DNA of 53,709 nucleotides, counting the filler, from Sluysia triapertura (taxonomy: Eukaryota), in NCBI GenBank assembly GCA_046118255.1. It is 4 parts of 4 records of this genome, joined end to end, with 100 filler letters (N's around TTAATTAATTAA, not from the genome) between each part and the next. Parts side by side here need not be neighbours in the genome. Positions count along the whole stretch, not along the records: positions 25,910 to 37,973 come from JBJNIA010142611.1; 3 more parts are not named here. One strand, written 5' to 3'. Made by a program: the position numbers and the translations under genes. Positions within the stretch are counted from its first letter, which is position 1. The number at the start of each line of letters is the position of its first letter. Positions 3,421 through 48,624 of this stretch are shown one piece after another. The notes under the pieces were generated by a model that did not search any database, had not been told where the DNA came from, and was given only the letters and a program-made list of their open reading frames with translations.

Positions 3421-3489
3421 TATGTTTTACTTAAAACATCTTGTAAATCATTAATTTCAACATCAGAAGGGTATCCGATATGTGGGCTC

Positions 3490-3627
3490 ATCAAATGGAC
3501 TGACCAGGAACCGAACTGCATAGTTCGATGTTCTACCCACTGAGCTATCAGCCCCGTTTAACAATTTTATTTTTTATTATAGTCAATTATACTATTATTA
3601 TATAGCACTTTAGGCCTGTACCCAAAT
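3490..3627 (-). mobile_element. Partial copy of the tRNA-containing mini-LTR-like repeat
   Basis: aaatggactgacc...cactgagctatcagccccgtttaacaatttt...gcactttaggcctgtacccaa matches 27155-27310. Confidence 0.75.
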
Positions 3628-4759
3628 ATATCAGTGTTAACAAAACTCATATTATATTTCGTAAAGAAATAGTTGAACTTGATTTACTTTTGCATGAAAA
3701 TGAATTAGCGATAAAAACTATAGTGTTTATGTTTCATGTTCATTAGTATTTTCTAACCAAATTGATCTCAATGACGCAATTTTTTGTCACCAACATTAAA
3801 CTCCACTAAGTTACGTAATTTGCAACTTTATTAAGAAAAAAGGTACCACTATTCTTCTATTAAATCTCTGACAACAGAATTTTCATCACAATCAACTTTA
3901 ATTTTCATATTCAATTTTTAATTTTATTAAAACAATTCATTTCAGTTTTAATTGTTTATGGAAAATAACTTTGAGAAAATAGTTTTTAGAAAATCTCGAA
4001 GTATTTGCCAAAAAATAAAATAACACTTTCTAAAAATGAAAAAGAATTTTCTAGAAAATTCTAAAAGTTCCATTGATTTTGATTGTGTATGGTGGTATCA
4101 GTTCAGTCCTAATCAAAAGTTATTAACACCAATCATTAATATAGGTCACAAAAATTTTTGGTTGTCATCGAAAGTAGAAGCATTCTGATTTAGATAAGAA
4201 ATTTAAGATTTTGGAATCCATAACTTATTCATCCATTTTTTAATTTAGTACGCTAATAATTTTGATTTCTTCCCCGGAGCGAATGAATCACAAAAAAGAC
4301 TTAAATTATTCTTGATAGAATTTTTTAACCCCGATTTAATGATAGTCAAAATCTGTTTTTAAAATCATTATAGTTGAAAAAATTTTTAAATTCATCATAT
4401 TTTTATTTCTTTTTTCTGTCTGTTTATTAATTATTTAGTGTGAATCTATTTTTAAATTTTGTAATAAACTTTGAGGATCAGTAATAAAATGTATTTAATA
4501 AATTTATATTTATATCACAATTTTCATTATTAATTTTATAATAGTAATCATAATAGTAATTTTATAATGATAATTTAGATTTATTTTTATAATAATAATT
4601 ATTATTACTAATATTTAATTTTCAATTATTAATTCTATTAATAAATTTTTATTACTGATTTCATAAATTCCGTAAATTTTAATATTAATTTTATTTATTA
4701 ATTTATTAATTTTATTTCTAAATTACTTTTATGTTTAATTATAATAAAAGTATATATAT

Positions 4760-5375: not shown

Positions 5376-5693
5376 GAACTTGATTATTGTATTTTGTTAA
5401 CTGTTTTGTGATTATGAAAAACATAAATATTTCCGACTAATTAGATTTTGTTATTGGGTTATTGTTAGTATTGTTATATATATAACAAAATTGATTTGCA
5501 TTGAGTTATTGAATTATAATTGATATCCCATAAAGTTAGATATACTGAGATTCGGACGTGTTTAATTTTCTTATGCAACCATTTAATATAAAAACCCAGC
5601 AATATAATTACATATTTTTATAAAAACCGTATTAATCCAAAGTGCAGCCTAGGAATAATTAATTTACATTAATTTATATATGAAATTTTTATT

Positions 5694-5740
5694 TTAACCC
5701 CTTCGCTACCAACCACGAATATACTCGTGATACTTTCAAT
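5694..5740 (+). mobile_element. piggyBac-like transposon terminus
   Basis: TTAA followed by CCCCTTCGCTACCAA, similar to TTAACCCTTTGACTACCAA at 53587. TTAA-CCC is the typical piggyBac end. Confidence 0.45.
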
Positions 5741-6577
5741 ATATTGTAACATGCAACTTGTAGAGCTTGCAAACCTTTCTTTCATGGCCACAAACATAAA
5801 TATACAAGTGTAAAAACTTGCAAAAAGCTACAACTAAATTGTTTTTACAAAAATTCTACTTTATTTATTAATTTATGTTTACTTTTCAACTAATAATAAC
5901 TAATACTTCTTACTCTACAAAACTACACTGCTTACTGATGAGAGATGTTGCAGATTAACTCAGTTAGAGTCAAATTGCTCAATATTGCATGATCCCGTTA
6001 TCTCTGACACGAAATAGAATCTAAGTAATCGTCAGCCTTTGCAAATTTACAGAAAATTGTGTCCCTTCTTTTAGTATTTTTATACTTTCATCTATTTGTG
6101 TGATTCATGATTTGTTTTTTTTGCTTAAATGTGTGCATTCCCATTTCCAACCGCACGAGCATACTCGAGTTTGATTTTTATACATGTAAATGATTATTTA
6201 TGACAAAATATGTTATATATATCTTGAAAAAGTAAAACTTAGGTAAACAATAACAACACTCAACACAAAAATGGCAAAGCGAATAACTTCGTCCAATTTA
6301 AAATTTTAAAAATTTAAAATTTCGTCGTAATTACTCATACAATGAGTGAAAAAATAGCTTTTTTTATAAATTTTATTATTATTTATTGACATTTAAAAGT
6401 AGTATATATATGTATATAAAAAGTAAAAATATTCATGTATTAAAAAATGACTAAATTTCTTATATACATATCATGCTTTGTATTATACAAGTAATGAAAA
6501 ATAAATATTTTATGATTACCATTATCATTATTATTACTATTATTATTATTATAATTATTATTATTATATTATCATTA

Positions 6578-7146
6578 TTATTCATTTTTCAGCATCGATT
6601 CTAGTAATTCTGAATCAACATATCCTGTTTCATCTAACTGATTCATCATTTTCCAACCCAAATCGGCCCATTTTTCCAGTGATTGTTCACATTCATTTCG
6701 TAACTTCTTGTTACCTGTTTGGCCCCATTTTAACAGATCTGGCGCATTTGTAACTGCTAATCTAGTCAATTTACAAGCGTACTCTCGCCAGGCTACTTTA
6801 TCTAACATCAAATCACGGATTGTTAATAAAAGTTCTTGTTTAGTTCGCGGTTCACGCATGAAATCAGCATTATTCTCACAATCACCTCCCAATTCGACTT
6901 TTAACTCATCTATTTCATATTCTTTTGTACGCAGACTGTCTTCCAATTCACTAACTTGATTTTCTAAACGATTCTTTTCGTCCAATAAATCATTAATGTA
7001 TTGCTGATTGGTGGAAAATGTCAATGTGTTTAATGGTGCCTTGTTTTGCCATTGTTCATTTATTGTTAATGCAGTTGCACGATCTTCCACTTCGATTTCG
7101 AGTATGGCTTGTTTCTGTTTGAGAAGTTGAAGTTGCTTTGTTAATT
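6578..7146 (-). CDS. Terminal exon of a coiled-coil protein with a C-terminal FIP-RBD-like motif (Rab11-FIP-like)
   Basis: Acceptor ctttttgctacag precedes 7146, the frame is open with heptad coiled-coil, and TKQELLLTIRDLMLDKVAWREYACKLTRLAVTNAPDLL resembles the FIP-RBD pattern. Confidence 0.55.
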
Positions 7147-8006
7147 CTGTAGCAAAAGATAAAAAATAATGTTTTTTACATATAAAAATTAATTTCAATA
7201 TAGTAGGAAAATTTGCTGTAAGCATGCATTGTTTGTGTCTTGTAAAACATGAATAACATTATTTCTGTTCAAAATAGAATTTTCATCATAAAATGTTATT
7301 ACAGAAGCTATGAAAATTTTAAGCAACAATGTGGAATAATCTAAGATTCATTCATAACATAAAGTATCAAATGATTTGTCGACAATATTTTGTAAGTAGC
7401 AATTAAAATTGCTCATGTCTTGTATTACACTCTGTATATTACTGAATATTGATTAATTATAGATAGTAAACCCTCTATGGGCCGAATTTCTTTTTGCCAT
7501 TTCAGATTGATGGTGCTGATGGTTATTTCGGAGGGACTTATATAATTATGGAAAAATCGAAAACTATTTGGTAAAATATGTATATATTAGCTTATGACTC
7601 GAAAGTCACAGAGGATTAAAGCACAATTTTGGATATCTTTGTATATTACAATTGCTTGTCTGTAAATTTATGCTTTCAAATAATCCACAAAATCAAGATG
7701 AATTATTAGAAAAATAAATATTTACATTAAATAATATCAATAGAAATCAATATTCACACGAGGTAATGTCTCAAAAAAGAACGACTTTACATCACAATAT
7801 CATTTTATTGTCAAGAAGATATCTGTCATTTCATGAATATTTTTCAATGAAAATATATTATGTTTTGTTTGTATTTACAAAGACAAATTATAAAAGTGGC
7901 ATCTTATTCTACATTAAAAAAGTACTTATGGCGCCTGTGTGTATAATCTCACGCAAAACAAATAACTTCAATAAAACTAACGATAATATAAAATAAATAA
8001 AATAAT

Positions 8007-8612
8007 TGTGGTGGTTAACCTTTTTATTCAAAATTTAAATCATTATTACACATACTTAATATCACTTTTCTTAACATTTCACGTTTTATTTTTCAGATTC
8101 ATTAAAATCTTTTTACATTTTAAAACATTTTAAATTCGCAATCTCACAACATTAATTAAGATTATACTTACATTAAACTTATATTTCAAAGATTATTCAA
8201 AACATTTCAAATCCAACATGTCACACTTAAAACCAAATTCCAAACATTTTACCTATTTTTCCATCAAAACCACTAAAACTTTAGACATTTCAATACATTT
8301 CGAGTTCACAATTCGTCAGCAATAAAATCATCCATTACATCAAAAATCATTAAATTCATAATTCAAAATTATTTTAAAATACCATTATAATCAAAATGGA
8401 ATTTCTTTTAACATCTTTAACGACGTTGTTATTTTTCTTTTATTCATGCATAAATGTTCCTTAAAAGATAATTAGAATCAAAGAAATTTAATTCATTTTA
8501 AAAAGAAAAGAAAAATTTTAAAGAAAGTTAGAAATAAAGAAATTTAAAAGAGATTTATGTTTTTATCATTTTGATGTCATTTTATTTTGTTTTATTATTT
8601 TATTTTATTTCA

Positions 8613-8651
<39 letters not shown>

Positions 8652-8870
8652 CAACATTATTACTACTATGTTTATTACTATTATTGATTATAATTCATTA
8701 TTTTAATTTTACATTCACAGTAACTGTCATTATGGACAGTATTTTGATGGATTTAAATTGAAATTTTATGACAGACATAGTCAACAGTTTTGTTGTAAAA
8801 TCACTTTATTATTGGCCATCCAATTCTTTTTTAATAAATCAGGTTAAAGAGTAAAAATAGTAACAAAATT
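8007..8870 (+). repeat. LTR/leader-like repeat upstream of the RBFOX-like ORF
   Basis: Starts TGTGGTGG on a C/A-rich, G-poor strand. aaaacattttaaattcgcaat and gagttcacaat are shared with the minus strand of 38210-38520. Paired segments ctgtcat...atgacag lie near 8725-8776. Confidence 0.5.
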
Positions 8871-9072
8871 GGTACCTTACATGAAAATATAGAAAAATAG
8901 AAACATAGACAGTGCGCAAAAATTTTAAAATTTAAATTACTTACAATAAAAATTAGCGAGTGTTGGCTCAAAAATTATTTGTTAAATTGTGTTATAAATC
9001 AAGTAAAATTTAGAGATAAGAGAGTAAAAAAGATATTATCAATTAGTAAACAATTTGTTGTTCTTTCACTTA

Positions 9073-9957
9073 ATGAATTTTATAAACGAAAACTATCAAT
9101 TGAATTGTGCAAGTCGAATAAATGACCCTAAAAGAATGCATATATCAAATATTCCATTCAGCTATCGTGAAATGGATTTAAAACAATTATTGAAAGGCTA
9201 TAGTGTAATTCTAGATGTGGAAATTATTTTTATTAAAAAAGGATCAAAAGGATTCGGCTTTGTTACCTTCGAAAACGCATTTGATGCAGATAAAGCAAAA
9301 AATGATTTAAATGGAAAAGAAGTAGAAGGACGTAAAGCGGAAATTAATGTTGCTACTCCCAGATCTATTTTCAACAAAAGAAAAAAATATGTTTTAAACC
9401 AAACTAATGTTTTCAATTTAGAAAATGCCGAAATGTCGTATAAATTGCAATTTCACCCATTCAGAGAAATGTGTTGCCATTTTCATTTTGATAATACTTT
9501 TAGAAATGTAAGATTTTCAAAAGTGTGCAAGCATTGTAAAGCATTTAATACAAGCGATATGGATAAACTGGAAACAATTAAAAGAAAGAGCTCTGTTTCT
9601 TCAGATATAGTTATCCCACCAAATACATCATTTGGTGCACAACCAAAAAATGAAAATTACATCGATAATAACAGAGTCGGGATATGTCAATTCACAACAG
9701 ACGATTTTGGTATATGTCGTAGATCTGGCCACTCATGCCAATACAACCATAATATTTTCGAAACGATTTCTAATCCTATCAATGATTACTATCAAAATGA
9801 TCATATTAATAGATTCAACAAATTATTACTTTCTTTGCGAATCAATCCCACAAATTCCTTATCTACATGTGACAATTATGAGCTAAGCAATAAACATAAG
9901 GATAATCAGATTAAAGTCAAGAGTAAACTTTATTGTTATAAAAATTTTTATATATAG
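9073..9957 (+). CDS. Intronless RBFOX/Fox-1-type RRM protein with a C-terminal CCCH zinc finger (retrocopy-like chimera)
   Basis: [15 protein letters not shown]...[46 protein letters not shown] matches the [30 protein letters not shown] is a CCCH finger. The ORF is uninterrupted, first ATG at 9073. Confidence 0.85.
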
Positions 9958-10379
9958 TTACAACTTTTATTTTTTGTTAAGAATGTGTTATGCGAAACAA
10001 TCGCTGGTAGTCCAAGATGCAAGTCATTCGACTATATTCCTGATCACATCAATAATCGTTAAAACTTCTAACATCAAAATTCGTGTTATAAAAAATAAAA
10101 CTTTAGAACTTTGTTTTTAAAATTTGTTGTATAAATTTTTTTGTAAAGATGTGATAAATATATTTATTTTTAATTCAAAACAATTTAATTATAAAATTTT
10201 AATTGCTAAATGTATAATAACAAAAAATAGTAGTAATAATTATCTTGTAATAATAATAAAAACGTTCGATCAACCCCCAAAATAATAATAATTATAATAA
10301 TATCAAATAATAAAGATAATAAATAATTTAATAATTGTTAATAAAAATAAAATTTTTATGTTTTAAACCATATGAAATT

Positions 10380-10945
10380 GTCTATTACAGAATATCTCTT
10401 GAAAAATCTTTTAAACAAAATTCCCAGTCTAAATCACATTTCCTAGATCATGTAATAGTTATTCATACGTGTTATGTCTCACAACCGACACAATTAATAA
10501 ATTCGAAACGTCAATCAATATAATATTTAAACATTAAATCATTCAACAAGAACGTTAGGCTAGACAAATTTATTCTACAAATCATTTACAGACTTAAACA
10601 ATACGTATTTTATACCACATTAAAGTTATATCAGATCATAATTCATTGAATTCACTTCTTTTTAAGATCATTAAATAACAACATTTCATAAAAAGAAAAT
10701 TCATTCACAAAATTCGTCAAACACAAAAATTATACTTAAAATCTAAATATTAAATACAATAATACTAGAACTAGTATTAAATTCTAGAACTAGTTATTAC
10801 AACAATAAACACACAAACTGAGACTTTACAACCTTATAATCAAATAACTCATATCATTATTCATTTAAACCACTCTACCTTAACGTTACATCATATAATT
10901 TCATTTTACAGATCATTTAAAGTCTTAAACATCAGAGTACGTACA
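10380..10945 (+). repeat. C/A-rich LTR/leader-like segment
   Basis: Same strand composition as the other leaders, with an acceptor-like ttcattttacag near 10900. No cargo ORF was recognised. Confidence 0.3.
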
Positions 10946-12289
10946 TTATTGGTGCAAGATCATGTGGAGAATTTAAAGATATTTTTATAAAAGAAAAGGT
11001 ATTGCATAATAATGATAATAATTGTATTGCATAATTGTATTTTAACAAAATCTAGTTCAACAACCAATGAAATGCGAATTAACTCTATTAATGAACTGAA
11101 GTAGAGAGTTCATTGAAAATCAAATAATAAAAAATAAAGAAAATTTGTGAAAGAAAAATTGTTGGCTTAAAAATTAGTCAAATTAAGAATTACTGTTATT
11201 GCGATCTGTTTTTTTCATTTAAAACTATGTTTAAGACGTCTAATATAAACTTAGATAAAAAGATGTTAGTTTCAATTTACCATGATAATCGTGCGCTTTC
11301 CATTTTTTAGGCACCTTATCGGGTAACTTTTACCCAATGTGGAAGTAATTCAACCCTTTCTTTGACAAAAAAGCGATGAATTGAGCATACAATAGTAATG
11401 AACAGAGCTCAATAATCATTCGTAAAATATAGGACTTAAACGATTTATAATTATGATTTTTATTGATGTTTACTTTTATTTTTGTTAAGGTGAATCATTT
11501 TCCCACAAAAATTAAATGATTAAATACGTGCCTAATAAAGAAAATTAGAATAATGTACGGCATTGATCTATTGAACATTATGATAACTTCCAATATGTTT
11601 AGATACAGGATGGGAGTTGCAATAAACTATCCCCGCTCGGTATACAGACTTAGTTCAAGCTTAAGTTCAATCGTAATTACATTTAGTATATTCGAATCAA
11701 TTCTACATATAAAAGAAATAATTAAACAAAGATTCTTTTGCAATGTTCATTTATTTGTTTACGAAAATCTTTGTCAAAAAGTTGTGAAGGTTTATTTTTG
11801 TCAATAACACTATAGATTATTACATAACTCTTAAGCACATCAATATTAATTCTAAAATCATAAACTATTCAGTGGAGGCTCCATTCACATTTTATACTCA
11901 TATTCACACAAAAATGGCAAAATTTTAACACCATTAGTAATACATGGTATGGATAATTAAATATTTTGAAAATCTCGGATAGCATCTTTAATAATGTGAA
12001 TCTATGTAAGTATTTTGTAATTGATATTAGGAATAAGATAAGAGCGAGTAACTTTTGAATAGGACCATTTAATAAGAACCGTAAAAGATAAAACGAACGA
12101 AGAAAAGATTATAGAATTATATGTTGTTTTAATTTGTAAGTAACGGGTTGCTTATAATAATATATTAATATATATTGCGATCATATCTACTGCGAAATAA
12201 GTACTCAAAAGCGCTTAAGTTAAATCATTAACTATAATATTTCTGAAACAGAAAGAACTTTGCCTTTTTCTTAAATATTTCATAATCTT

Positions 12290-12560
12290 CAAGAAATTCG
12301 GTTGTATATTTTTGAAACATAGACGGTACACAACCTATCACCTAGATTGTTATCACTCTGGATTCTGATATAGATTATCATGCCTCAATAAAATATTCAT
12401 CTTGTTTTCCAATTTTCGTATTATTTCTAAAAGATATCCGGGACCTCCGTAATGTAAGCATTTGTAAATTATTGTCACGATTTTTAATTCTATTCTTGCT
12501 TTTAATGGCAAGATTTATAATAATTGAGTTATATTCGTCATTTGGTATTAATTGTTAAAA
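12290..12560 (-). mobile_element. L2/CR1-group LINE remnant (3' part of RT ORF)
   Basis: Minus strand reads LPLKARIELKIVTIIYKCLHYGGPGYL, typical of the L2/Crack C-terminal region. Confidence 0.65.
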
Positions 12561-13304
12561 ATTAACTAAATTTTTGATTGGTTAATTTCATTAATTTAAA
12601 ATTTTTGGTTGTTCATAGTTAATTTAAAATAATTTCTGGAAATTTTAATTTGCAAGGATAAAAGATCAGTGATACCCTTTGTGTAAGGACTAGAAGATTC
12701 GATCGGAATTGTATGAAGGTTGACATTGTTCTTATGGATCATCAAAAAGAATGTGACCGAGGAGGAGAAATAATATTAGCATTACAAAGTTGAATAAACG
12801 TTTATATCATAATAACAAGAATAAGTACTGGCCTAAAGTGCCACTGAATGATGATAGTGTAATTAACCATAATGAAACAAAACTGTTAGACATAATAAGG
12901 TCCGACATAATAAAATATTAAACTGCCTAGCTGACAAAATGACACAAATGGGATTCTTTGTCATTCTTTTCCTAATTCAAAGGTTCGCAAACTAGGGGCG
13001 AGCCCCCGGATGAGGGCGCTAAAAATTTTAAAATTGATAGATTTTACAAACAAAGTTTGTTTTTCTTTGAATATTTTTGTTGTAATTCCATAATTTACGT
13101 TCGAGATGTAGAACAATCATCAAGAATAAAATGGCAAAGCAAATATACTTACAAATTCATACATGTTCACTAGAGATATTATGCTATTTTTTAGCTGCTA
13201 AATAAAAATAACGTTAGCGGACAGCTATCACAGTCGCGAAATAGCAGCTATTAAATAACAGCGACGTGTTGAAAAAATATTAATATTTCACAAATATTAA
13301 AATT

Positions 13305-13484
13305 TCGCAATGGTTTGGAAATAAATACTTGAAAATCAATGAAGAAAAGTCAGAATTTATAATCTTCAAAATAAATGAAGCAAAGTTAATTGTAGGTGGC
13401 AAGACATTAGATGCGAAGCAAAAAGTACGAAATATAGGTTGTTATATGGATTCAAAAATGAACATGGAAGAAAATATTAATTGT
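13305..13484 (+). mobile_element. L2/CR1-group LINE RT fragment
   Basis: WFGNKYLKINEEKSEFIIF...KVRNIGCYMDSKMNMEENIN. Confidence 0.7.
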
Positions 13485-13584
13485 NNNNNNNNNNNNNNNN
13501 NNNNNNNNNNNNNNNNNNNNNNNNNNNNTTAATTAATTAANNNNNNNNNNNNNNNNNNNNNNNNNNNNNNNNNNNNNNNNNNNN
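13485..13584. other. Artificial contig linker (N-TTAATTAATTAA-N)
   Basis: Six-frame stop linker at 13529-13540 inside an N run. Confidence 0.95.
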
Positions 13585-13656
13585 TTTTAAACTGTGCCGC
13601 CAAATTTTGAAATCTTTAAAATAGTGCCGCAACAAAAAAAAGGCTGAGAATCACTG
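13585..13656. mobile_element. hAT-like MITE terminus abutting the gypsy RT
   Basis: gtgccgc subterminal repeats and the end ggctgagaatcactg, whose reverse complement is a CAGTG-TTCTCA-type hAT end. Confidence 0.55.
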
Positions 13657-15541
13657 ACTTAAAATAAAACTTACAAAATGTGCATGGGCAGAAGAAAAAG
13701 TATCTTCTTAGGACACATAATATCTAAATATGGTATCAAACCAAACCCAAGAAATATTGAAAAAGTAATCAAGTTTCCTCAACCTGATAATGTTAAAAAG
13801 GTTCAGAGTTTTCTAGGTCTGGATAATTATTATAGGAGGTTTGTTAAAAATTTTGCAAAACTCGCTCAATCCCTCAGAATCTAACAAAGAAGGACACAGA
13901 ATTTAAATGGACCGAAGAACAGAAAAAGGCATTTAAAGAACTAAAGGAACATCTAACTACAGTACCAATATTAATATTTCCGGTATTTTATAAGCCTTTC
14001 CTACTAACTACAGATGCTAGTAATTATGCTATTGGCACAATTTTAGGTCAGAAAGACAAGAATAATCTTGAAGCAGTCATAGCACACGCCAATCGAAGAC
14101 TTAACAAAGCAGAAACGAATTATTCGACTGTAGAGAGAGAATGTTTAGCAATTGTATGCGCATGTAAATTGTTTAGACATTATTTATTATGACAAAAAGT
14201 TTATTTGTACACTGACCACAAACCCTTGACATATTTATATAATGACAGAGATGAAGTCAGTAGACTTAACAGATGGTTTAATAAACTGTCCGAATTTAAC
14301 TTGGAAATTGTTTATAAGCCAGGTAGCTTAAATAACGCAGCTGATTGTATGTCTAGATTGACGAATGTAGACAACAAGGGAAATATCAATTTCATACAAA
14401 TTATGTCGGTATCGGGGAAAATGCAAAACTCTGAAGAAATTATTAAACATCAGAGAGAAGATAAAGAGACTTCCGCTCTTCTAGATGCATTAGCTTAAGG
14501 AACTTTAAATGAATTACAAGCAAAAAGATTAGCTATCATGGATGGAATATTAAGATTTAAAAACATTTAAGATTTATACCTATTCTAATACAATTTCATG
14601 ACGGACAATTAGGAGGTCACTTATCAACAAGGAAAACATTATCCAGAATTAAAAGTAAATACTATTGGGAAAATATGGAATCCGATATCAGAAAATGGTG
14701 CAAAGGCTGTTCAATATGTTGTCGACGAAAGAATACTGGACAAAAGACCAAAACCTATGCCAGTACCACTATCATCAATGGAATTTACCGCTATGGACAT
14801 TATGGGTCCTCTTCCAGAAACCATTAATGGCAATAAGTATATAATTGTATTTGTGGATTATTTGACCAAATGGCCAGAGGCCTACTCGATGCCTAACCGA
14901 AAGGCTGAAACAGTAGCACAGATACTTGTAGAAAAGATAATAAATATAGATATGGAACTCCTAGAAAATTATTAACAGATCAAGGGACTAACTTTACTAG
15001 CGATGTAATCAAATCAGTAGCTAAAATCTTTAATATTCTACGAATTTACACGTCGCTTTACCATTCACAAACTGATGGACTGGTGGAACATTTTAACAGA
15101 CTCTCATCAATATGATCCAATCTTATATATAGCACCATGTCTTTACCAATTTATTTCACTCCGTTTTACCTAATGTATGCTGGTCGATTTGGAATGGGTT
15201 CCACCTACTTCACAGAAATTCCGGAATACGTGACAACAATGAGAGAACAATTACAAGACGCACGGAAACTGGCATGTCTTCAAATTAAATACTCTCAGGA
15301 AATATATAAGTACACATATGACAAAACAGCAAAAGAACATACATTTAAGATAGGTGACGAGGTGTTAATAGATTATCCAATAACTAAACCTAGTCAATCA
15401 CCTAAGTTACATAAACCTTTTAAAGGACCTTATCTAATAACAAAAGTTAACGATACAAATGCGTTTGATAAAGATCCTAATAAAACTAATTCTGAAACTT
15501 TTGCAGCACACGTCAATAGATTCAAGATGGCACCAATATAA
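13657..15541 (+). mobile_element. pol: Ty3/gypsy pol of element A (RT thumb, RNase H, integrase with GPY/F), frameshifted
   Basis: FLGHIISKYGIKP, VQSFLGL.NYYRRFV, TTDASNYAIG, YSTVERECLA, YTDHKPL, ADCMSR, HHCC motif (H...GGH...CKGC), MDIMGPLP, TDQG, KPFKGPY, HVNRFK. Confidence 0.95.
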
Positions 15542-15579
15542 TTTAAGAAATAGAAAAGTTTTTTAAATCAAAACTGAAA

Positions 15580-16242
15580 GTTCAGCCAAGGCACAAAGAT
15601 CGAGATAAACCACCTTCAATTCATGTACTACGAAATAAACAAGTGGTATTTATGATGCATTCCCATGGAAATGACCTGGCTCATATAATGCAAAACGTGC
15701 GATTTAACGGGCGATGTGTTAGAGCAATTGTAGATACCGGTGCTACTGTTTGAGTAGTTCATAAAAACTTTTTAACTACGTGGGAATCAGTGTTCTTAAA
15801 TAGACCAACTCTACTAACATATAATGTTAATCAAACACTCATAAATATTAATGGAACTTTATTATGTTATATAGAAGTATTAGGGCAATATGTACAAGTT
15901 TTAGTAAATGTTTGAGATAATAGCCCATACGGAATAATATTAGGCACGGACGTTATCAATAAATTAGAAGATCTGGTCATTCACAGTAAATATGGCTTTA
16001 TAAAAGTACCACCATGTTCAAATATGATTATACCGCAATTATTAGTTCCACAAGTTGGTGATGTATTAATCTTATATCAAATGCCAATTTCGAATCCACC
16101 ATTACAAGTTCCAGACTTACTATTACCCGATATTGTTGAATCTACACTTCATTTATCTAATATATCATGGGGATCACCATCGACAATTACATCGGAGGAA
16201 AATTCGGATCAGGAATCGGATCAGATGTTCAAGAAACAGTAA
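15580..16242 (+). pseudogene. Second retropepsin-like aspartic protease downstream of integrase (element A)
   Basis: RAIVDTGATV at 15721-15750 and YGIILGTDVINKL near 15930-15965, with in-frame stops. Confidence 0.85.
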
Positions 16243-18470
16243 TGATAATGACTAGTATAAGAAAAAGAAATTGTTTTAACAAAAATTGTTTTAGTAAAAT
16301 ATCTTGTTGGTTTTATATCTTAACTGTAATTTTTCTATCACTTATAATTAATGCTATAGCAATAGAAACAGATGAAGAATACAAAAATATGAATATCGCT
16401 ACAAATCACGGTAGAGAATACAAAATAATGATTAGCGATATATACAATCAATACTGGAAATTTGAATTTATTTCCAAGAAAATGATTTTACGACACAAAT
16501 TTGAAATTTATTGTATCTATTTAAAACCCTTACTAGTAGGAAGACCACATCATTTAAACGGTATCCCACATTGTCCGCATTATGGTTACAGACCTGTGTT
16601 AATAACTTTTCTCTAGACACCCCAAGAAATACACGAGATATCTCGAAATTTATCAAACAAATAGATCAATTAAGAAATGGAGAAACAACAAGAATACAGA
16701 CAACCTTATCCGATTATGGTGCAATTAAGAGACAGATAAATAATTTAAACAATTCAACTGCAAAAGGTACAACGAACATTCTTATAAATTCTTGATAATG
16801 TTACTAATTTTCACAGTACTATACATATTTTGGATTATACTCTATTTGTTTAAAATTGGTAAAAAGATCTTATAACTTTAATTTTGATTATGATAGTTAC
16901 AGTAGTCCAATGCGACGAACAATCCTTTAAAACGGAATACTTTGAATTCTATAATAGAAATAATGAAGTAAAGGTTAAAATATTGAACCAAAACATTCAT
17001 GCCAAATGTGCCTGTTTAAAACCCGCCAAACTTAATTTTAGTTCATGGATCAAATACGAAAATTATATTAATAGTGAATTGAGATAACCAGTCACGGTTT
17101 GCTCAGATATTTTGCCTATCGAAGGTAGACATTATAGTGAAAATCCATCATTCATCAAAACATTCGCATTTTGCATTTAAAGGAACAAGAAAACATTTAA
17201 CAATATTAGAAATATTACGGAATATTGTTTGTAATTGCTTTAGCTATAGTAGTATTGACTATTATTATGTTTGTTTCAAACAAATGTCGATACCCATGCC
17301 TACCACATAACAATAATAATGATGCATACACAGTTCCACATCGAAACAATTATGCTCTTCCACCAGGTATGCCGATACTTCCACCTCCAATTTATGAATA
17401 CGCCACAAATAATCAGATACCACTTATATATGGGTTCTGGCAAATGACTCAAGTAAAGTCTACAATTCTGATATGTATTTACTTATCTTACAAATCAAGT
17501 ACAAATTATTTATCAGGAAACATCGCACCTAAGATAATTCTAGTATCAACTCAAAAGGATATTTACGCTAAAATATTAACAGATAAGGTTAAATTATTTG
17601 CTGTTCAAATAAAATGTTTTTTAAAGGATTTCTACTGGTTTATATCGTATATTGACCTTGTTGAATATCAACTATTCAACGTAAGGTTAGCTATAAAAAT
17701 GGAATATGAATTTCAAAGTGATTCAAAGATTATTTTACTAAGCTACTACAAAATAATAACTAAACCGTTTGTGTTTCAACAATCACCGACATACAACACT
17801 AAGACTAAACCATCTGTCTCTAAGAAATCATCAACGTTAATTGAATTTCGAATGATCATCTATCGATATCTTGGAAATGTTGTACGTATTCATAACCCGT
17901 CATACAATAATACGTTATTGATCGCCTACGAATTGAGTGATGATTTACGTTATGGAATAATATTACCTAATGATACTATTCGTTTGTATCATCTTCCGAA
18001 TAATAGACTTTTGTTCATTAAATTTGGATATTAAGAAAAGCAGAATTATATGATTCCAAAGGATTTTGGCCAACAATCAGATACTATGACGTGCAGGTAC
18101 CAATTATAGATAAGTACGAAAATGATTTAGATACGAAATCAGAAAAAACGTTCAAAAGTGATAACAACGTTATGAAAATACCTTATGATGGGAATAGGAG
18201 TATAAACTCGAGTAATACCAATCGGAACAGGAGCATAAGTGCGAATACTACAGTATAAGTATGAATATAATTAAGGAGACTACTAGTTGTTCAATTATAA
18301 AAGAATCCAACAATAACTTTATCACAACTATAAACTATATTTTAATAATAACTTCTTTGTTAACATTAATAATTAACTTTATTATCCCAAAGTTTTACTT
18401 GTTTATTAGGCAGAGGGCCCATTTTTTTCATATAAGTTTTAATACATATTGCATAATTGACCACATGTAA
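16240..18470 (+). pseudogene. Accessory membrane polyprotein of element A (signal/TM segments alternating with about 3 ectodomains)
   Basis: Colinear homology with 35096-37216, e.g. IYCIYLKPL/IYCIYWKPL, YFEFYN/YFDFYN, PAKLNFSSW/PARLNFSLW, YTVP/YSVP, ITKPF/IKTKPY, GFGQQ/GFGQQ. Confidence 0.8.
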
Positions 18471-21969: not shown

Positions 21970-22757
21970 TTATTGATAATCGTAGCGGTGCTGCAATTGA
22001 CATTCCGGTTTTTTTATAAGAACAATTTTCTTAATAAGTTTTTCAGATAAAATGTTCTTATTTACCAAACTATTTATATAAACTAGTTTTGTACATTTTA
22101 TCAAATATCCTCTTATTACACATTCATATCGCTGAATAAATATTAAATCGCCTTCTCTTACTGCTTGAAAAATATCGAAAGAGTTATCAACAATTAATTT
22201 TTCAACAAATACTAGAGGCATATCTAATTTTTTTTGTAATATCGTCTATATGTACACACCACTTTTCTTTAAGTACATCGTTCAATTGTAATGATATCAA
22301 TCTGAGATATGAAGAGTCAATCAAAATATTATTTATTAATCGTAAATTATTGTCATGAAATAACATATTACTAACATATGATTCAATAGTCTTTAAATCA
22401 ACTTCTAAAGTATTAGATAACACAAGTAACGAAACTTTATGGAAAATATTATTTATTAACATATTACTAACGAAATAACATATTATAACGAAATAACATA
22501 TTACTAACACATGTTTCAATAGTCTTTAAATCAACTTCTAAATTATTAGATAACGCGAGTAATGAAACTTTATGGTTTTGGAGTTCTAATTCTTCATAAA
22601 TTTCATTTGATATTTAGAACAACTTTAACTTGTTACTAGATATCAAAAAATTCATTCTATCAATGCAATTCCTTTCGCTTGATTTATCAATTGATGAAAC
22701 TTCATGCGCTATCTTAAAATCAGAGGCTAATATCTTAATTTCATGCCAAGTTGTCAT
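21970..22757 (-). pseudogene. UFL1: Intronless N-terminal retrocopy of E3 UFM1-protein ligase 1, with an internal duplication and frameshifts
   Basis: MTTWHEIKILASDFKIAHEVSSIDKSSERNCID resembles the UFL1 N-terminus (W.EI..LA.DF..A......SERNCI). Also LIDSSYL...LNDVLKE and IRGYL...INSL. 22380-22443 is duplicated at 22510-22575. Confidence 0.85.
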
Positions 22758-25113: not shown

Positions 25114-25350
25114 TTTAGATATAAGTTCGAGGTCTTTCTTGTTTGCATGGATCACTTCTTCTTTATTAACAGATCCAATTTCAAAACCATCACATTTAAT
25201 ATCGACAATATTTAAAGGGTTTATTCCAATATCTAGTGACTGAGCACCGGTTGATCCTTCTTTGACATCAAAAAAGAATAATTTAAATTCACTAAGGGCC
25301 AAATACTGCTTCTTCCAACCTTTTCTTATTCCGCCTTGCTTATGAGGAAC
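25114..25350 (-). CDS. CDC42BP: Exon of an MRCK/CDC42BP (genghis khan)-like kinase, PH domain
   Basis: AG/GT-bounded 237-nt exon encoding VPHKQGGIRKGWKKQYLALSEFKLFFFD...SVNKEEVIHANKKDL. Confidence 0.8.
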
Positions 25351-25809: not shown

Positions 25810-25909
25810 NNNNNNNNNNNNNNNNNNNNNNNNNNNNNNNNNNNNNNNNNNNNTTAATTAATTAANNNNNNNNNNNNNNNNNNNNNNNNNNNNNNNNNNN
25901 NNNNNNNNN
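25810..25909. other. Artificial contig linker
   Basis: TTAATTAATTAA at 25854-25865 inside Ns. Confidence 0.95.
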
Positions 25910-26539: not shown

Positions 26540-26880
26540 TAGACTTTGCTGAAATCTAATGAAACCCCTTTTAATTGTGATAATGCATCAATTCATAGTA
26601 TCATATCTTCTGGAAATTTTCTCATAACTCTACATTTTATTTCGATTTTATTTTTTCCTATTTCACATAATATTTTTAACACTTCTAATATTTCGATTTC
26701 ATCTCCTGTTACTCCTGTTAAATATGATTGTTATTTAGTTAAATTATTAAGTTATTTTACAGTTAACATCGATTAGCTTATTAAGGAGGCTACTGCTCCT
26801 GCATCTACCAATGCTGATAATATTCTTCCATTTCCACTCATATCTACCATTGTTCTTATTGCACAATTGTATTATTATTT
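26540..26880 (-). pseudogene. Decayed retropepsin-like aspartic protease directly downstream of the env gene
   Basis: RILSALVDAGAVASLI (DAG at 26797-26805), then LTGVTGDEIEIL and FPEDMIL.IDAL. Confidence 0.75.
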
Positions 26881-26882
26881 TC

Positions 26883-28439
26883 TCATATCATATAAACTAA
26901 GTTTCTTGGAGGAGGTTGATATAGGTTTCGTTTTTCTTTTATTTCTTTATCAACTCTTTCTATATTAATTATTTGTAGTACAATTTCTTCTCTTTGTTTT
27001 CGTTCAATTTTCATAACATTTAATTGAGCATGAGCATGATGATGTAATTGGATGTTTAGAATGGGAAACATCCAATTATTAATTTCCAGGTTGATCCAGA
27101 TGTTTTAAAATACCTACTACCGAAAATATTTGAGATATAATACAAGCATATACCTGCTAGACTCCATAAAATGGATTGCCAGGGCATCGAACCTGGCACC
27201 TCTTGCTGAGCAGTTCGATACTCTACCACTGAGCTATCAGCTCCGTCTAACAATTTTATTTTATTATATTCAATTTTACCAAATGGCACTTTAGGCTTTT
27301 TACCCCAACATACCTATGAATCCTGAAAATGCTTGTCTTATCACTAAGAAATATCCCCTTATTTGTTTAAAGTATTACGTGCTATTAAGTGGTCTGGTCC
27401 TAAAAGTAGTTCAAAATTTACTTTACTGTCTTTTCTACAATTGCCTTAATGGGAGATAATATTTCACACCAAGCTGCTTGAATTTCTTCGTTTTAATACA
27501 TTCCTGACCAAGAGATATTTTTTATAGCTGAAAATTTTAATTTTGATTTTGATTCTCTCAAATCTATAATTTCTGGAGTTTTAACTTGGCGGTGAAGTAA
27601 AGATATTCATAAGTTATCATTAATTTTATATTATGGTGCCATCATATTAGAACAGTGTAGTATTTTTGGTTTTAATTAATTTGTTGGTATTATTATTCTT
27701 GTAACAGGTTCTAAGTGAGTTGGTTGATTTTTATAAGTAATTGGTAGTTCATTTGTACATCGTTTTCTTCTCTAATTTGTACTTTTACTTTTTTTACATT
27801 TATGTGTGTAAACTTCACCCATTAACCTACAAAATACGCCTTCTTTTAAAAGAAGTAATGGTGCTACTAAATTTGGATTAGTTATTGCTACAGCCAATTT
27901 AGTTTTTAATATTTCTTTTTTTAATTGGAAATCTCTAGCTATCATAGCTTGATAAACTTTTTCTAACGACATAAGTCCTAAATGGTAATAGAAATCAAGT
28001 TTATTATTAAAATGTGTATTTAATTTTAAATTTTTTGTGTCTATATATCTCTTTGCTTGCATTATTAATTTTTCAGATAAATAAATTCCCTGATAATTTG
28101 GTTCTGTGATTTCTTGTCCGTATCTGATTACTAGCTTTTTTGATGCAAATATTAGTCCATCTTCATCTTTATTTGCCATTAATAGTGTAGGAATTTCTAC
28201 CTCACTAAGTCTTTTTCTTTGTGGTGCATCTAAGTTATCCTTGTAAATTTGTTTTTTATTTATTTCATCTACCACCAAATCTTCATCATATTGATACATA
28301 AATCCGGAGATTAAATTAAATTAGATTTGTTTTAAAAATATTAAAGGGCATTGAAATTTTTCTAATTCATATATTAATGTTGATTCTTCAGTATCATAAC
28401 TTGTTTGATCACTTTTACAGAATGGACGTGACATCATAG
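26883..28439 (-). pseudogene. env: Chuvirus-G / herpesvirus-gB-like (class III fusion) envelope glycoprotein, decayed
   Basis: NNKLDFYY...LKKEILKTKLAVAITNPN...EGVFCRLMGEVYTHKCKKVKVQ...CTNELPITYKNQPTHLEPVTRII...CSNMMAP.YKINDN...SGMY, followed by the TM region FSGFIGICLYY. This is the motif order of chuvirus-type glycoproteins. Confidence 0.75.
27155..27310 (-). mobile_element. ~156-bp TG...CA element with a tRNA-like core, 4-bp TSD TACC, inserted in env
   Basis: tacc|TGCTAGAC...CCCCAACA|tacc. Removing it restores the env frame (SGFIGICLYY). Confidence 0.8.
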
Positions 28440-28456
28440 TGTTAGACTTCATAAAA

Positions 28457-28529
28457 TGGACTGACCGGGGATCGAACCCGGGACCTCTAGCTGCGCAATT
28501 CGATTGCTCTACCACTGAGCTATCAGCCC
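28457..28529 (-). tRNA. tRNA-Ala(TGC)-like pseudo-tRNA inside a repeat flanked by TGTTAGAC/GTCTAACA
   Basis: GGGCTGA-TAGCTCAGTGGTAGAGC...GGTTCGATCCC-TCAGTCC-A then TTTT. A and B boxes are intact, the acceptor stem has G3:U70, and the anticodon stem is unpaired. Confidence 0.7.
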
Positions 28530-28851
28530 CGTCTAACAAATTTATTGAGTTGGTCGAGTGGTAAGGTATTGTAAGTTTTGCATAATAAAATCAGTAATTA
28601 ACAAAAGATTTATAACAAGAAATGATGGTAAAAAATATATTAATCAAATTAATCGAAATTAGTTTACAAAATTTGGATTTAAGGTCCGTAACTAAAATTA
28701 CCAATTCAAAATAAAACATTGGCTTAAGGCCGCGAATAATTTTTTTAACCAAAAAGTAAACAAAAACATAAACAATCGTTTTATCTATTTCACAAACATA
28801 AATTAGTATTTTATGAATATAACAATGTATAAAAAGTACACGATCAGTGGT

Positions 28852-35095: not shown

Positions 35096-37216
35096 CTATA
35101 CCTTGATTGAGCGAGTTAATCTACGCGTGTTAATTACATAAATTTTTATGACTTCAGTCGTAAGATTGACTGCAAGTAACGCATAAAGTATGAATGTTAT
35201 AAGAGATAAATATATGTTGATTTTATTTGAATTGGCTTGGTCGCTATTGTTGATTATTTTAATTGAAAAATTATTATTTGGAGTTTTAATAATTTTATTA
35301 GTTTTATTGAGTTTAGTAGTTTTCTTATTTATTGATTTTGTCATTTCGTACTTATTATACTTATTTAATGTATCTTCAATAGTTTCATTAATAATTGGTA
35401 CTACTAAATTAAATTGTTGTCCAAATCCAATACGGTTCATTTTAAATGTTTCATTAATGAAACGTATCCATACATATATAAATGGGAACGTCAATTATGT
35501 TTGGTAATCTATTCTAATTGTTAACTTAGGTGGTATTAACTCTATAGTGGAAACCTTATTGGTACGATATTTTATGGCGATTGGATTATTTAGTAACGTG
35601 TTGGTCATTTTAACTAAGTTATTTCTGTCAATTATTGCTGTAAAGGAGCAATTCATCCATTGTCTACTAAAATAATCAAAAAATAAATATGGTTTAGTTT
35701 TAATCCAGTGATACTGTGTGTATATTAATCTATTTATTAGCTCTATTGATATCTTAACTTTATATAATTGGGATTCGAACAATTCTTCACAAGTTATGAT
35801 CCATTTTTTGATTGTTATATAAGGGATGGCTGAAGTAGTGCATTGATCTTGTAAGCAGCATCTTATAGATAAGTGAATTAATTTTCCATTTATGTTTTTA
35901 ACACTAGCTATAATTTCATCGGTTTTCACTTGAATAGATAATTGCATGTCATTATAAAACATTTTCTTGCTTAATTTGTTTGTCGCATTAGCAGTGATTA
36001 TACATGTTAAACAAATACATAGTAAAACTGATGACATTTGAATTCCGTTGTAATGTGTCTGTAATCTTAAATCATCATTATATTCGTCTAATGGAGATGG
36101 CATTAATGGTGGTCCTGGAGGAGCATAAAATCGATTGATTCTTGGTACTGAATAATGATTATCGTCGTCGTTATTAGATGAAAAATTCAAATATCTATAT
36201 TTGTTCATTATAATAAACGTGATCATTAATAATGTTATAATTAAAGCAATAATAAATAATGTTGCTGCTATGATTAGAATTGCCAATGATGGATCTTTTC
36301 GTAATGAGTCTATAATGGTTAATTCTTTTCTATTACCTTTTATGGCATAATGTAGTTGTTTAATTATTTTGGCTTGCTTTTTTATAAATATTACTATATG
36401 TCTGTCTTCAGAAAGCAAAACATCCTTACAAATTGTAACGGGATATTCTGTATTTGGTATTGCATGTTGATAGGTTTCCCATAAACTAAAGTTGAGTCTT
36501 GCGGGATTAATACATATATAATTTGCTTTTATGTTCATATTGGTCATTTTGATTTGTACTTCTGTGTCATAGTTGTAAAAATCAAAGTATTTCGATCTGT
36601 ATACTTTCTGTGATCCATTTGCTATTGATATCATTGATAATATAGTGAGTAACGTTATATCTCGACGAATGTTATTAGTTTTTAAAATCCTATTACAAGT
36701 GATAATGTAATAAATGCTAAATAACAAGTATATTATAGTGAAAATTAGAAGTGCCAGTATAAAGATATTCTTTGTACAATCTTCATTCTTTTTTCTTATT
36801 GTATTTGTGCTTATTTCCTTATTATTCATACTTGTTTCTTTATTTACTATTTTATCTGTTAATCTTTCCAAATATCTTGTTGTTGTTGGTGGTGAAATTA
36901 TTTAAGTTTCCTTGTAACATTGTTCATTAAGTATGTCCGTGAAATTTATTGTTATTAACTTACAATTATAAAATGAAAATCCTATTATTGTAGTAAAATA
37001 GATTGAATGTTCACATTGGTAAATATCATCTACTAACAAAGGTTTCTTTATTACTAATGGTTTCCAATAGATACAATAAATTTTTAAATTATAATTGGGT
37101 ATTGTGTTTCTATCGTCTATTTCAACTGTCCAAAATCGATTGAAAATATTTGTAAGAAAGATTGCCTGTTTAGTATCAGTATAGCTTGTTAAGTTTGTTG
37201 GATAATGAGTTATCAT
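35096..37216 (-). CDS. Accessory membrane polyprotein of element B (nearly intact; ORFs 36902-37216, 35495-36871, 35096-35494)
   Basis: Multiple TM and signal segments, a Tyr/Pro-rich cytoplasmic loop, and colinear homology to 16240-18470. Confidence 0.8.
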
Positions 37217-37973: not shown

Positions 37974-38073
37974 NNNNNNNNNNNNNNNNNNNNNNNNNNN
38001 NNNNNNNNNNNNNNNNNTTAATTAATTAANNNNNNNNNNNNNNNNNNNNNNNNNNNNNNNNNNNNNNNNNNNN
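37974..38073. other. Artificial contig linker
   Basis: TTAATTAATTAA at 38018-38029 inside Ns. Confidence 0.95.
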
Positions 38074-44463: not shown

Positions 44464-45737
44464 ATAATATTTTATTATGCATTACTAAAAAATTTAAAAA
44501 TATACAGTACTTCAGAGTACACAATACATGATTGTAATGACAGGATTACAATCCAAGTTAAATGTGTAACCTGTGCCTTACGAAAAAATGTCACAATCTG
44601 TCAACGCTCATCAATAAAGACCTTAAACAACATTATGAACCATAGAGATGTCTGGTTTTCTCACCAATCAAAACCGCTACGGGAACACCTTACATTTTGT
44701 GACTACAATATATTCGACGGAGCTGTAATCGGACTAACACACAAGCTGCTCGGCGGATCAGACGTCGACGCCGACATGCCCTTCAGACAACAAAAAACGC
44801 AGAAGGTGAACACCTTTGAAACTCCCTTCTTCACTGACGAATCTGGACTCCCAAATACATGGTTCCTCGTCGTGGAAGCACATTTTGAACGATACAACAT
44901 AAAACGACAGAGCACCATGTTTAACCAGTTACTTCCTCTCCTTCCGCAACCTCTCTTAAGCAAATTAGGCAGCAAGATTCAAACTTGTTTGCAGTCGGAG
45001 AGCGCCTATGACGATTTAAAACAAACAATCTTGGCACACTACCGTCCCAATACACAGAAAGTGTTCCAAGATTATTTCAAGGCGCAATCCTTAGGGACTC
45101 TTTCCCCTTCAGAATTTCTGGCCAAGATTAGAAATGATCTTGAGCCCTTTGGTTGCGAAAAGGATGAAAATCATGACGTCCTAAAGAGATTATTCTTGGA
45201 CGCCATGCCCACCGAAGTCCAGACCGTACTTACCGGCAGCCAAATTCACGATATTAAAGAATTGGCCAACCTTGCCGACAAGATAATAAATCAATGGCGA
45301 ACAAGGCGTACAGACACCATAAGTTCCATGAACGATACACCACAATCTAAGTCAGGCATCACTTTAGAATCCATGTCAATGAGGATCGATGCCCTGACCG
45401 CACAAGTAGCTGAAATCACCAAATTAGTCGCTACAAGTCTGACGCAACACGCCAGCAATCCTCCCACTAGACGACAATCACCACCGAACTCCGGGTCCTC
45501 ATTGCTATCCCGAAAATCAGCCAGCAGTCCCGGAAGGTTCAACGGTATCTGCTATTACCATGACAAGTACAACAGAAAGCAAAATGTTGTGTACTAGGAT
45601 GCAGATACCCCAATAAGTTGAACACACTCCGAATAAAGAATATTTGCATATACCATGCACATTTCAAAAACCTGGCCAAGCGATGCATGGACGGCTGCAA
45701 TCAATTCAATACTTTCAATGCAGCATCAAAAAACTAA
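44464..45737 (+). mobile_element. gag: gag of a CsRn1-clade gypsy element with an N-terminal ubiquitin-like domain and two CHCC knuckles
   Basis: The frame is open from 44464. Ubl ITIQVKC...KPLREHLTFCDYNIFDGAVIGLTHKLLGG, then PNTWFLVVEAHF...YDDLKQTIL...PSEFL...ELANLADKI, then C-x2-H-x9-C-x3-C twice (1-nt deletion near 45578). Confidence 0.85.
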
Positions 45738-45778
45738 ACTCGCCATTGGTCGTAGCGGCCAGACCGGACAATATGGCG
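45728..45778 (+). promoter_or_regulatory. Probable -1 ribosomal frameshift site between gag and pol
   Basis: Slippery AAAAAAC at 45728-45734 is followed by the gag TAA, then a downstream stem CGCCAT...ATGGCG with inner tggtcg/cggcca. pol is in the -1 frame. Confidence 0.65.
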
Positions 45779-48624
45779 ATCAACAGTATATTTTCAGTGC
45801 CGCTCAGATTTATCAATTTTCAGCATGTCTCCCTCGAGTTTCTTATTGACACTGGAGCCGCTGTTTCGGTGATACCACAAAAAATTATAAATAACACCGT
45901 CAAAACACATTCATATTTAACAGCAGCTAACGGAACAGCCGTGGCTTGCTATGGCTCCCAGAAACTCCAATTTCAAATCCACCCGTTCAAAGAAATACTC
46001 GAATGGACTTTCCTCATAGCGGCAGTTCAACAACCAATATTAGGAGCAGACTTTTTTAGTCATTACAAGTTCTCGGTTGACTGCCACACAAGAACTCTAC
46101 ACAAAACCTCCGGATAATTGTCACACATAAAGATAGAACAAAATCAAATAAACGAAACAAACGTTCTTTCTTATGTGGAGCAGGTGTATCCAAACTTAAT
46201 TTAACAACAATTCAATCCGGATTATACACCTTGCTCGGAGCATTTCATTAATACACTACCCACCCCACCGTGTAGACAGCGACGAAGGGAATTAGCGCAA
46301 AAAATCCGTTCCTAAGCAGAGCTCGAATTCCTTGACATGGGAAAACAAGGAATTGTGCGGCGATCTTCTTCACCCTGGGCCGCACCTCTGCAAATCGTCA
46401 CAAAAAAAGATGGCACTATTCGCATATGCGGTGACTACAGAATGCTAAACAAAGTCACTATTCCTGACGCATATCAGATGCCTCTTATAACCGATATTTT
46501 ACACCGATTTACGAAATGAAGCGTCTTTTGCTCAATAGACCTCGCAAAGGCATATCACCAAATACCGGTACATACCGCTGATATACCAAAAACGGCCGTG
46601 ACTACTCCTTTCGGTCTCATTGAGTATATCAGAATGCCTTTTTGTCTAAAAAATTCCTCTCAAACTTTTTAACGGCACATCGATCAAATATTACAAGGAT
46701 TGCTGTTCGTCACATAGTGATCACTTCTAAGGATTTTCACCAACACCAAATCCATTTGGATGCAGTGTTAAAGAAACTGGCAGACAATAATTTGGTAATC
46801 GAACCCACGAAATGTCAATTCTTCCAGTCTAGAATTACATTTCTGGGACACCATATATCTGCTTGAGGCATCGAACCATCGGAAACCCATACAGCAGCAA
46901 TAAGAGACTTTCCGCAAACTCAAACGGTCACACAAATGTGGAGTTTCTTGGGATTAGTAAATTATTGTCACAGATTTATACGAGGCTATCACATATAATA
47001 GCCCCTCGGGCAAGAAATCCCAGTCAATTATGTGGAACCAAACATCCTTAGCATCCTTTCATTGTACAAAGAAGTGATCATGGAAATGAAAAGTTTAGCT
47101 TTTCCGCTTCCACAAGTACCTTTTATTCTAACTACGAACGCCTCCAATATAGCAATCGGCGCGGTAATTGTGCTGGACCTATTGAATTCTTTTCCCACAA
47201 ATTATCAGGGCACCAAACAAGGTATTCCACATTCGATCGAGAATTGCTGGCTATCTTCCTATTAATAAAACACTTCGAGTACTTGTTGGTACCAGCTCAA
47301 TTCACACTTATATCAGACCACAAACCCGACTCCAAGGCAACAACGGTACATCAGCTATCTTTCTCAGTTAATTTTAATAATGAATACATTTCGGGACAAG
47401 AAAATGTGGTTGCATATGCCTTATCTCGCGTAAGTATAAACAGTATTGAATTTTTACCAATGTTCACTGTCGAAGACCTACAACGGAATCCTCGAACAAA
47501 TCAAGAAATCGCTCAGTTCAGCGTAACACCAATATTGCGTGAGGGAATTTACTTCAATAATCAATTATCAGACATCGCACGCCCAGTTATTTACCAAGAA
47601 CTACGTATTCCAGCTTTCCAATACGTTCACAACACCACCCATTGTGGAGCTAAGGCGACTTATGAAGTCTGACGCTCTAAGGTTGTATAGCCATCAATGC
47701 GCAGAGATATCAAATATTTGTGCAAATCATGTTTGATATTCCAGTCTGTAAAAGTTCACAAACATACAAAACTGGGACCGCTTCATTTTCCTATAGGCCA
47801 CCTGTTCGAAACAATTCATATGGACATTGTCGGTCCATTACCACAATCGCGTGGCTATACTTATATATTAACAATATTCGACCGACGCAGCCGCTGGCCT
47901 GAAGCCTTCCGAAACCATATCGAGAATCCTGGTTTCTAATTGGATATCTCGCTTCGGAGTTCCTAAGAGAATTATTACGGACCAAGGAGTTCAGTTCGAA
48001 TCCGGCTTATTCAATGAATTAATAAAACAGTTAGGCAGTACCAGATTACGAACGACATCATACCATCCTCAGTCTAACGATATGATTGAGCGCTACCATC
48101 GCGTTATTGGTACGACACAATTGGGTCGATGCCCTTCCGTTAATTTTATTAGGTTGGCGAAATATACCACACACTGCTACTGGATATTCACCAGTCCAGG
48201 TACAAACACAAGATTACCCTTCGAACTATTTGAATCAGAAAACTCTAATGAGAAAATCTATTCTCTCTTATTACGGAAGTATTTCAATGAACTGGACACA
48301 TCTCCCCGACATAATGACAACTCATATATAAACATACCAAAAGACATGCTTGATACTCAATTCGTCTGGGTAGCACTACATCTCTACAAAAAAAGATATT
48401 CTGGACCATATAAAGTTATACAAATAAATCCTGAAAACCGTACAGTTACTATCAATATCAACGGCGTAAACAAAATACTCAACTGGTGCAAATTGGAACC
48501 AGCCACCATTCTTGTAAATCATCAAAAGGAACATTCCCCATCGATCAAGTTCGTTACCTTCGATTCAGCAGTAGTTGTATTACATAACAATGGTAAATTC
48601 AACTATAAGATTAAGACAAAATAA
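45735..48624 (+). mobile_element. pol: pol of the CsRn1-clade gypsy element (PR-RT-RH-IN), decayed
   Basis: [91 protein letters not shown]. Confidence 0.95.

Follow-up and report, generated by a model that had tools for sequence, protein, structure and literature searches.

A 156 bp insert lies in a decayed env-like gene of an LTR retroelement, which is bordered directly downstream by a decayed aspartyl protease frame (Table 1). The window, by which we mean the whole stretch of DNA analysed (53,709 nucleotides of Sluysia triapertura, assembly GCA_046118255.1, filler included), consists of several 12–15 kb contigs with a G+C content of 26–30%, set end to end; neighbours across the joins are not linked. 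N-runs stand at 13485–13584, 25810–25909, 37974–38073 and 52689–52882, three of them with a TTAATTAATTAA spacer. The env-like flank, which an earlier sequence-only reading had taken to be the target of the insert, is indeed the remnant of a Monjiviricetes-type fusion glycoprotein gene (PF24664). Its best frame contains 11 stop codons over the 374 codons between the insert at 27155 and a second copy of it at 28440; the gene is therefore interrupted at many points other than the insert, whose position is beyond the last Pfam-matched stretch. Depth among the contigs of a public sequencing run (see below) identifies the gene as multi-copy. A homology search with the env-like frame returned no matches.

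Table 1. Positions, along the window, of the insert, its parts, its further copies and the neighbouring retroelement genes.
Feature	Position	Strand	Remarks
Solo-LTR-like unit, 156 bp, TG...CA	27155..27310	-	Fixed ends in contigs
Left 4 bp target-site duplication, TACC	27151..27154	.	
Right 4 bp target-site duplication, TACC	27311..27314	.	
AT-rich upstream part, 67 bp, putatively U3-like	27244..27310	-	Starts TGTTG; common to the 3322 and 3481 copies
TATAATAAAA, candidate TATA-like sequence	27259..27268	-	-25 to -16 from the tRNA-like start; also overlaps AATAAA
Inner TGTTAGAC	27245..27252	-	Exact inverse (8/8) of the 3' end of the 28440 copy
tRNA-like module, 72 bp	27172..27243	-	Decayed in the focal copy
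Box A, inside the tRNA-like module	27226-27236	-	
Box B, inside the tRNA-like module	27186-27193	-	
Trailer, 17 bp, putatively U5-like	27155..27171	-	Closes with CA
TTTT, Pol III terminator-like	27168-27171	-	Directly after the tRNA-like module
Second copy, in the same env-like relic	28440..28546	-	Best tRNA-like module, at 28457-28529; upstream part lost at junction with low-copy DNA
Decayed copy, near full length	3481..3628	-	Deletion in the tRNA-like part
Decayed copy with deletions	3322..~3438	-	Right boundary approximate; 42 bp from the 3481 copy, same orientation
Env-like (fusion-glycoprotein) gene of an LTR retroelement, gB/chuvirus-type, decayed and multi-copy	27315..28439	-	PF24664 positions 293-385 and 383-496
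Decayed aspartyl protease frame	26572..26847	-	Follows the env-like gene directly, giving an env-then-pol order
Decayed Gypsy-type element	44464-48624	+	DUF7041 gag-like, protease, RNase H and integrase pieces

Read on the minus strand, the focal unit runs TGTTG...AGCA between two TACC copies, and the insert, its TG/CA ends and its duplication are present as first described. Two random 4-mers from the focal contig are identical by chance in 0.8% of cases; the exact duplication occurs in one of the four window copies, the focal one. Sequences of about 65 bp upstream and about 16 bp downstream of a tRNA gene had been proposed, and these measure 67 bp and 17 bp; the TATA-like sequence that had been noted is TATAATAAAA. 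Neither a poly(A) nor a simple-repeat tail is found in the focal unit, again as had been claimed. The outer inverted repeat is short (4 bp perfect, 5/6 matching). The inner TGTTAGAC, an inverse of the unit's 3' end, is kept in three of the four window copies, and the fourth differs by one mismatch (shuffle P 0.003). As a guess, the inner TGTTAGAC may be an older 5' end of the unit.

The tRNA-like module is preserved to very different degrees in the copies. Against Rfam RF00005 the 28440 copy scores 47.8 bits, the 3481 copy 20 bits and the focal copy, in which the cloverleaf fold is absent, 13.4 bits. ARAGORN called the module of the 28440 copy alone, as tRNA-??? with no isotype. The acceptor stems of the 28440 and 3481 copies retain G3-U70 and A73, which we take to be alanine identity marks, hence an 'Ala-like' acceptor stem. 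The label 'tRNA-Ala-like' given to the module earlier thus stands for the acceptor stem, while no isotype could be named for the module by ARAGORN. Its anticodon arm is broken and, judged from the sequence, the tRNA-like part is probably not a working tRNA. An Rfam scan of the whole window returned tRNA only, with no 5S and no hammerhead match.

All four window copies that had been reported are real, although the pair at 3322 and 3481 is decayed and the 28440 copy is without its upstream part. Pairwise identity among the four is 77–87%. At 28547, on the upstream side of the 28440 copy, summed contig depth drops from 969,869 to 158; this copy has no duplication because its upstream side is cut at that point. 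The same drop ruled out a candidate second subfamily, in which the 28440 copy would have ended at 28603 with an ATAG/AAAG duplication. We also considered whether the 28440 and 27155 copies could be the two LTRs of one element and discarded the idea: the 27155 copy is flanked by its own duplication, and the two are 86.8% identical. The 3481 and 3322 copies are 77.8% identical and their outer flanks agree at three of four bases (chance 8%), and neither a TGG-type PBS nor a purine tract occurs in the 42 bp between them; an LTR pair is not supported. A box-A-like motif lies on the opposite strand (+) at 28547–28566, at the cut junction of the 28440 copy, and may be due to chance; this segment is low copy, at about 10 times single depth.

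The contigs of one public run, possibly the source of the window itself, served as our genome-wide sample. Positions 27060–27410 were covered by 8,146 contig records and 27122–28831 by 19,691. Exactly at 28440, 536 contigs exit into unrelated flanks (agreement 0.41; among the 6 of 703 loose ends listed), and 116 do so exactly at 27310 (agreement 0.44; among the 6 of 206 loose ends listed). A further 102 contigs exit at 27296, where the loose part extends as far as a CCCAACA end and gives way to AT-rich flank (again among the 6 of 206 listed). Both ends of the unit, TG and CA included, are sharp genome-wide, which bears out the expectation of fixed termini across copies. The majority letters beside both ends resemble AT-rich flank and not a shared internal part. 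At least several hundred insertion junctions are distinct, shared junctions being under-counted in collapsed contigs. From summed depth the copy number would lie between about 2,800 and 91,000, a rough range since depth is no copy number; these figures suggest thousands of copies or more. Five contigs (among the 15 of 166 joints listed) join the upstream part of one unit head-to-tail to the 3' end of another, two from 27312 to 28440 and three from 27275 to 28440, judged from the joint positions. Exact family motifs of 20–27 letters had no match in metagenome, viral or prokaryote contigs. Short matches of high depth in the flanks of the unit, at 27072–27143 and 27324–27371 (summed depth about 5,000–18,000, from a few contigs), are possibly those of another repeat.

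The sequence-only reading had favoured an LTR-like element over a SINE, and the fixed ends, the missing tail and the 4 bp duplication of the clean copy agree with it. It had further suggested a tRNA analogue of Cassandra. Such a class does exist, but it is not new, having been published as Helenus (TRIMp3), TRIMs with tRNA-derived sequence in their LTRs (Kojima, 2024, Biology 13:119; PMC10886601). The LTR layout given in that account comprises a TGT start, an upstream part, a module with TAGCTCAG and GGTTCG boxes, a T-run and a short ACA end; boxes A and B are described as conserved, the tRNA as mostly non-functional and the anticodon arm as broken in many families. Several families are listed there from LTRs alone, with no internal part, and for animals Table S1 gives LTRs of 104–323 bp with 4 bp duplications. 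The 156 bp unit resembles Helenus as so described in that a TG...CA repeat encloses a tRNA-like module bearing boxes A and B, and also in its short trailer with a T-run, its broken anticodon arm and its occurrence as solo units; like the animal families listed it is non-coding, has a 4 bp duplication (at the one clean site) and, at 156 bp, falls within their size range. It differs from the published description in that no internal part, PBS or PPT is seen for it and in the inner 8 bp inverse of its own 3' end. Its copy number may also be higher than those listed, the largest family counted there having 5,575 LTRs under stricter rules than our depth bracket. With Cassandra, plant TRIMs that carry 5S rRNA sequence in the LTR (PMC7215508; PMC10886601), the unit would share a small-RNA-derived Pol III promoter within the LTR of a non-coding element; unlike Cassandra it has a tRNA-like module instead of 5S and is found in an animal.

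We conclude that the 156 bp repeat is probably a solo LTR left by a non-coding LTR retrotransposon (TRIM) of Helenus type. It would thus be a further instance, in an animal, of a known class and not a new kind of element; Helenus is cited as established in a 2026 paper (PMC13570524). The ends, the layout and the size agree with Helenus, and membership is likely rather than certain, because no two-LTR copy with PBS and PPT was found in the window or among the contig joints and loose ends listed. No PBS follows any of the four window copies, as expected for solo LTRs, and no PPT precedes the three that retain the upstream end. The family seems to be unlisted, because two of its motifs (11 and 13 letters) are missing from the sequence file of PMC10886601, where line breaks could hide a match. 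A search of the openly accessible literature found no paper on this 156 bp family.

Following Kojima's model, the tRNA-like promoter in the 5' LTR of a parent element with an LTR–internal–LTR structure would drive transcription by Pol III, the transcript running through the first T4 and stopping at the T4 of the 3' LTR. The tRNA-like part would then correspond to R, the 67 bp to U3 and the 17 bp to U5. Pol III transcription of Helenus is itself a prediction, and not a demonstration, in PMC10886601. Reverse transcriptase and integrase of Gypsy type would act in trans and leave a 4 bp duplication, and recombination between the two LTRs would leave a single LTR with a duplication on either side, the arrangement seen at 27155. 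By itself, a unit would be unable to make copies through reverse transcription, because a transcript from the tRNA +1 position omits the 67 upstream bases; it would be unable to regenerate, and a two-LTR parent would therefore be needed. The fixed TG...CA ends and the 4 bp duplication point to a Gypsy-type integrase product. Decayed Gypsy-type pol genes are present in the window, and window self-comparison found no LTR pair for the relic at 44464–48624.

Three other origins have to be weighed against a Helenus-type solo LTR. The unit could be mobile as DNA, as a MITE-like element moved by an integrase-type transposase such as that of Ginger2, with the tRNA module as cargo or promoter. Ginger elements likewise have TGTNR ends and 4 bp duplications (PMC2836005), as the focal unit does; moreover, the internal region was not found, copy number is high, and a perfect 8 bp inverted repeat brackets the tRNA-like module. 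Against this, the outer inverted repeat of 4 bp (5/6) compares with 50–180 bp in autonomous Ginger2 elements as reported (PMC2836005) and falls short of the 16 bp TIRs reported for Ginger2 MITEs (PMC3845634). The target preference given for Ginger2 is RTATAY/TATA, whereas the sole clean site here duplicates TACC (PMC2836005; PMC3845634), and the layout matches the published Helenus LTRs closely. We hold a Ginger2-type MITE to be unlikely. A related proposal dispenses with the two-LTR parent altogether: a single tRNA-bearing unit would have spread by itself to SINE-like copy number, whether by cut-and-paste with a transposase of integrase type or by way of tandem or circular intermediates, having grown from an older 99 bp unit whose perfect 8 bp ends bracket the tRNA module. 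Among the 6 of 206 loose ends listed for 27060–27410, none lies at the boundary of this inner 99 bp unit. We give this proposal a small chance; a new mechanism would be opened only if the two-LTR parent does not exist.

It seems very doubtful to us that the unit is a solo LTR left by a larger or autonomous LTR retrotransposon, with a tRNA piece acquired in its LTR and no TRIM involved. Nothing constrains the length of the internal part, and two of the copies sit inside the decayed env-bearing element. However, a duplication of its own flanks the 27155 copy, which is therefore an insertion into that element, not its LTR, and whose identity to the 28440 copy is limited to the value given above; the gag-pol relic at 44464–48624 has no copy of the unit at its borders, and the contigs that exit at both ends run into unrelated flanks. 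A SINE of tRNA origin that carries an unusual extension upstream and is mobilized by a LINE is largely refuted and in our view extremely improbable. In its favour, abundance is SINE-like and the putative Pol III promoter is tRNA-like. SINEs derived from tRNA (SINE2) begin at the tRNA 5' end and finish in a tail; the unit shares with them boxes A and B of tRNA origin, short length and abundance, but it does neither of these things, having instead 67 bp of fixed sequence before the tRNA start, fixed TG/CA ends that are sharp in hundreds of contigs, and no tail. A 6 bp duplication (ATACCT), put forward earlier as a second option and compatible with a SINE, also fits the focal site. It is contradicted by the fixed ends of the family, and we reject it because bases of the TG/CA ends would then fall outside the element. 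The T of the terminal TG is common to the 27155 and 28440 copies while the preceding base differs, and this T therefore belongs to the element.

If the Helenus-type assignment is right, the 156 bp repeat adds to this type a very abundant and probably unlisted family, possibly in an animal phylum new for it. The RBFOX-like frame and MRCK-like exon described below place the AT-rich host among the animals, possibly outside the six animal phyla listed for Helenus. An env-before-pol order with a gB-type env is reported in Nematoda, Bryozoa and Platyhelminthes (PMC13524379), all three of which are absent from Table 1 of Kojima (PMC10886601). This gives a hint, and no more, that the host belongs to one of the three, since the protein searches described below assigned it to no phylum. 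The family would support the view expressed in the same paper that TRIMs with tRNA promoters arose several times. Counts of tRNA genes are also inflated by families of Helenus type, and this one, at hundreds to thousands of copies, would be well suited to testing the predicted Pol III transcription of Helenus. As to transcripts that pass through a terminator, LTR read-through is reported for Cassandra arrays (PMC7215508).

Several further features were seen in the window. An intronless frame with an RBFOX-like RRM and an unrelated C-terminal part (9028–9957, +) may be a retrocopy. A homology search gave 37 matches, the best with 53–57% identity to fish proteins and confined to the RRM; a longer match to Intoshia was set aside as low-complexity beyond the RRM. 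The PH-domain exon of an MRCK-like kinase (25114–25350, -) is very divergent from database proteins: one homology search found no matches and another gave mrck-1 as the best match. For a coiled-coil frame, homology searches returned one weak coiled-coil match. Two related hydrophobic frames on separate contigs (17210–18034, +, and 35495–36901, -; 30% identity over 275 aa) both have decayed frames of integrase or protease type close by; neither could be assigned convincingly to a Pfam family, and they may represent an accessory gene belonging to a family of LTR elements. The repeat pairs 20956–21744/30338–31156 and 1960–2230/4872–5153 represent two families, in each of which the copies are in opposite orientation and about 71% identical. 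A tandem duplication at 22343–22575 has a spacing of 133 bp and is about 90% identical.
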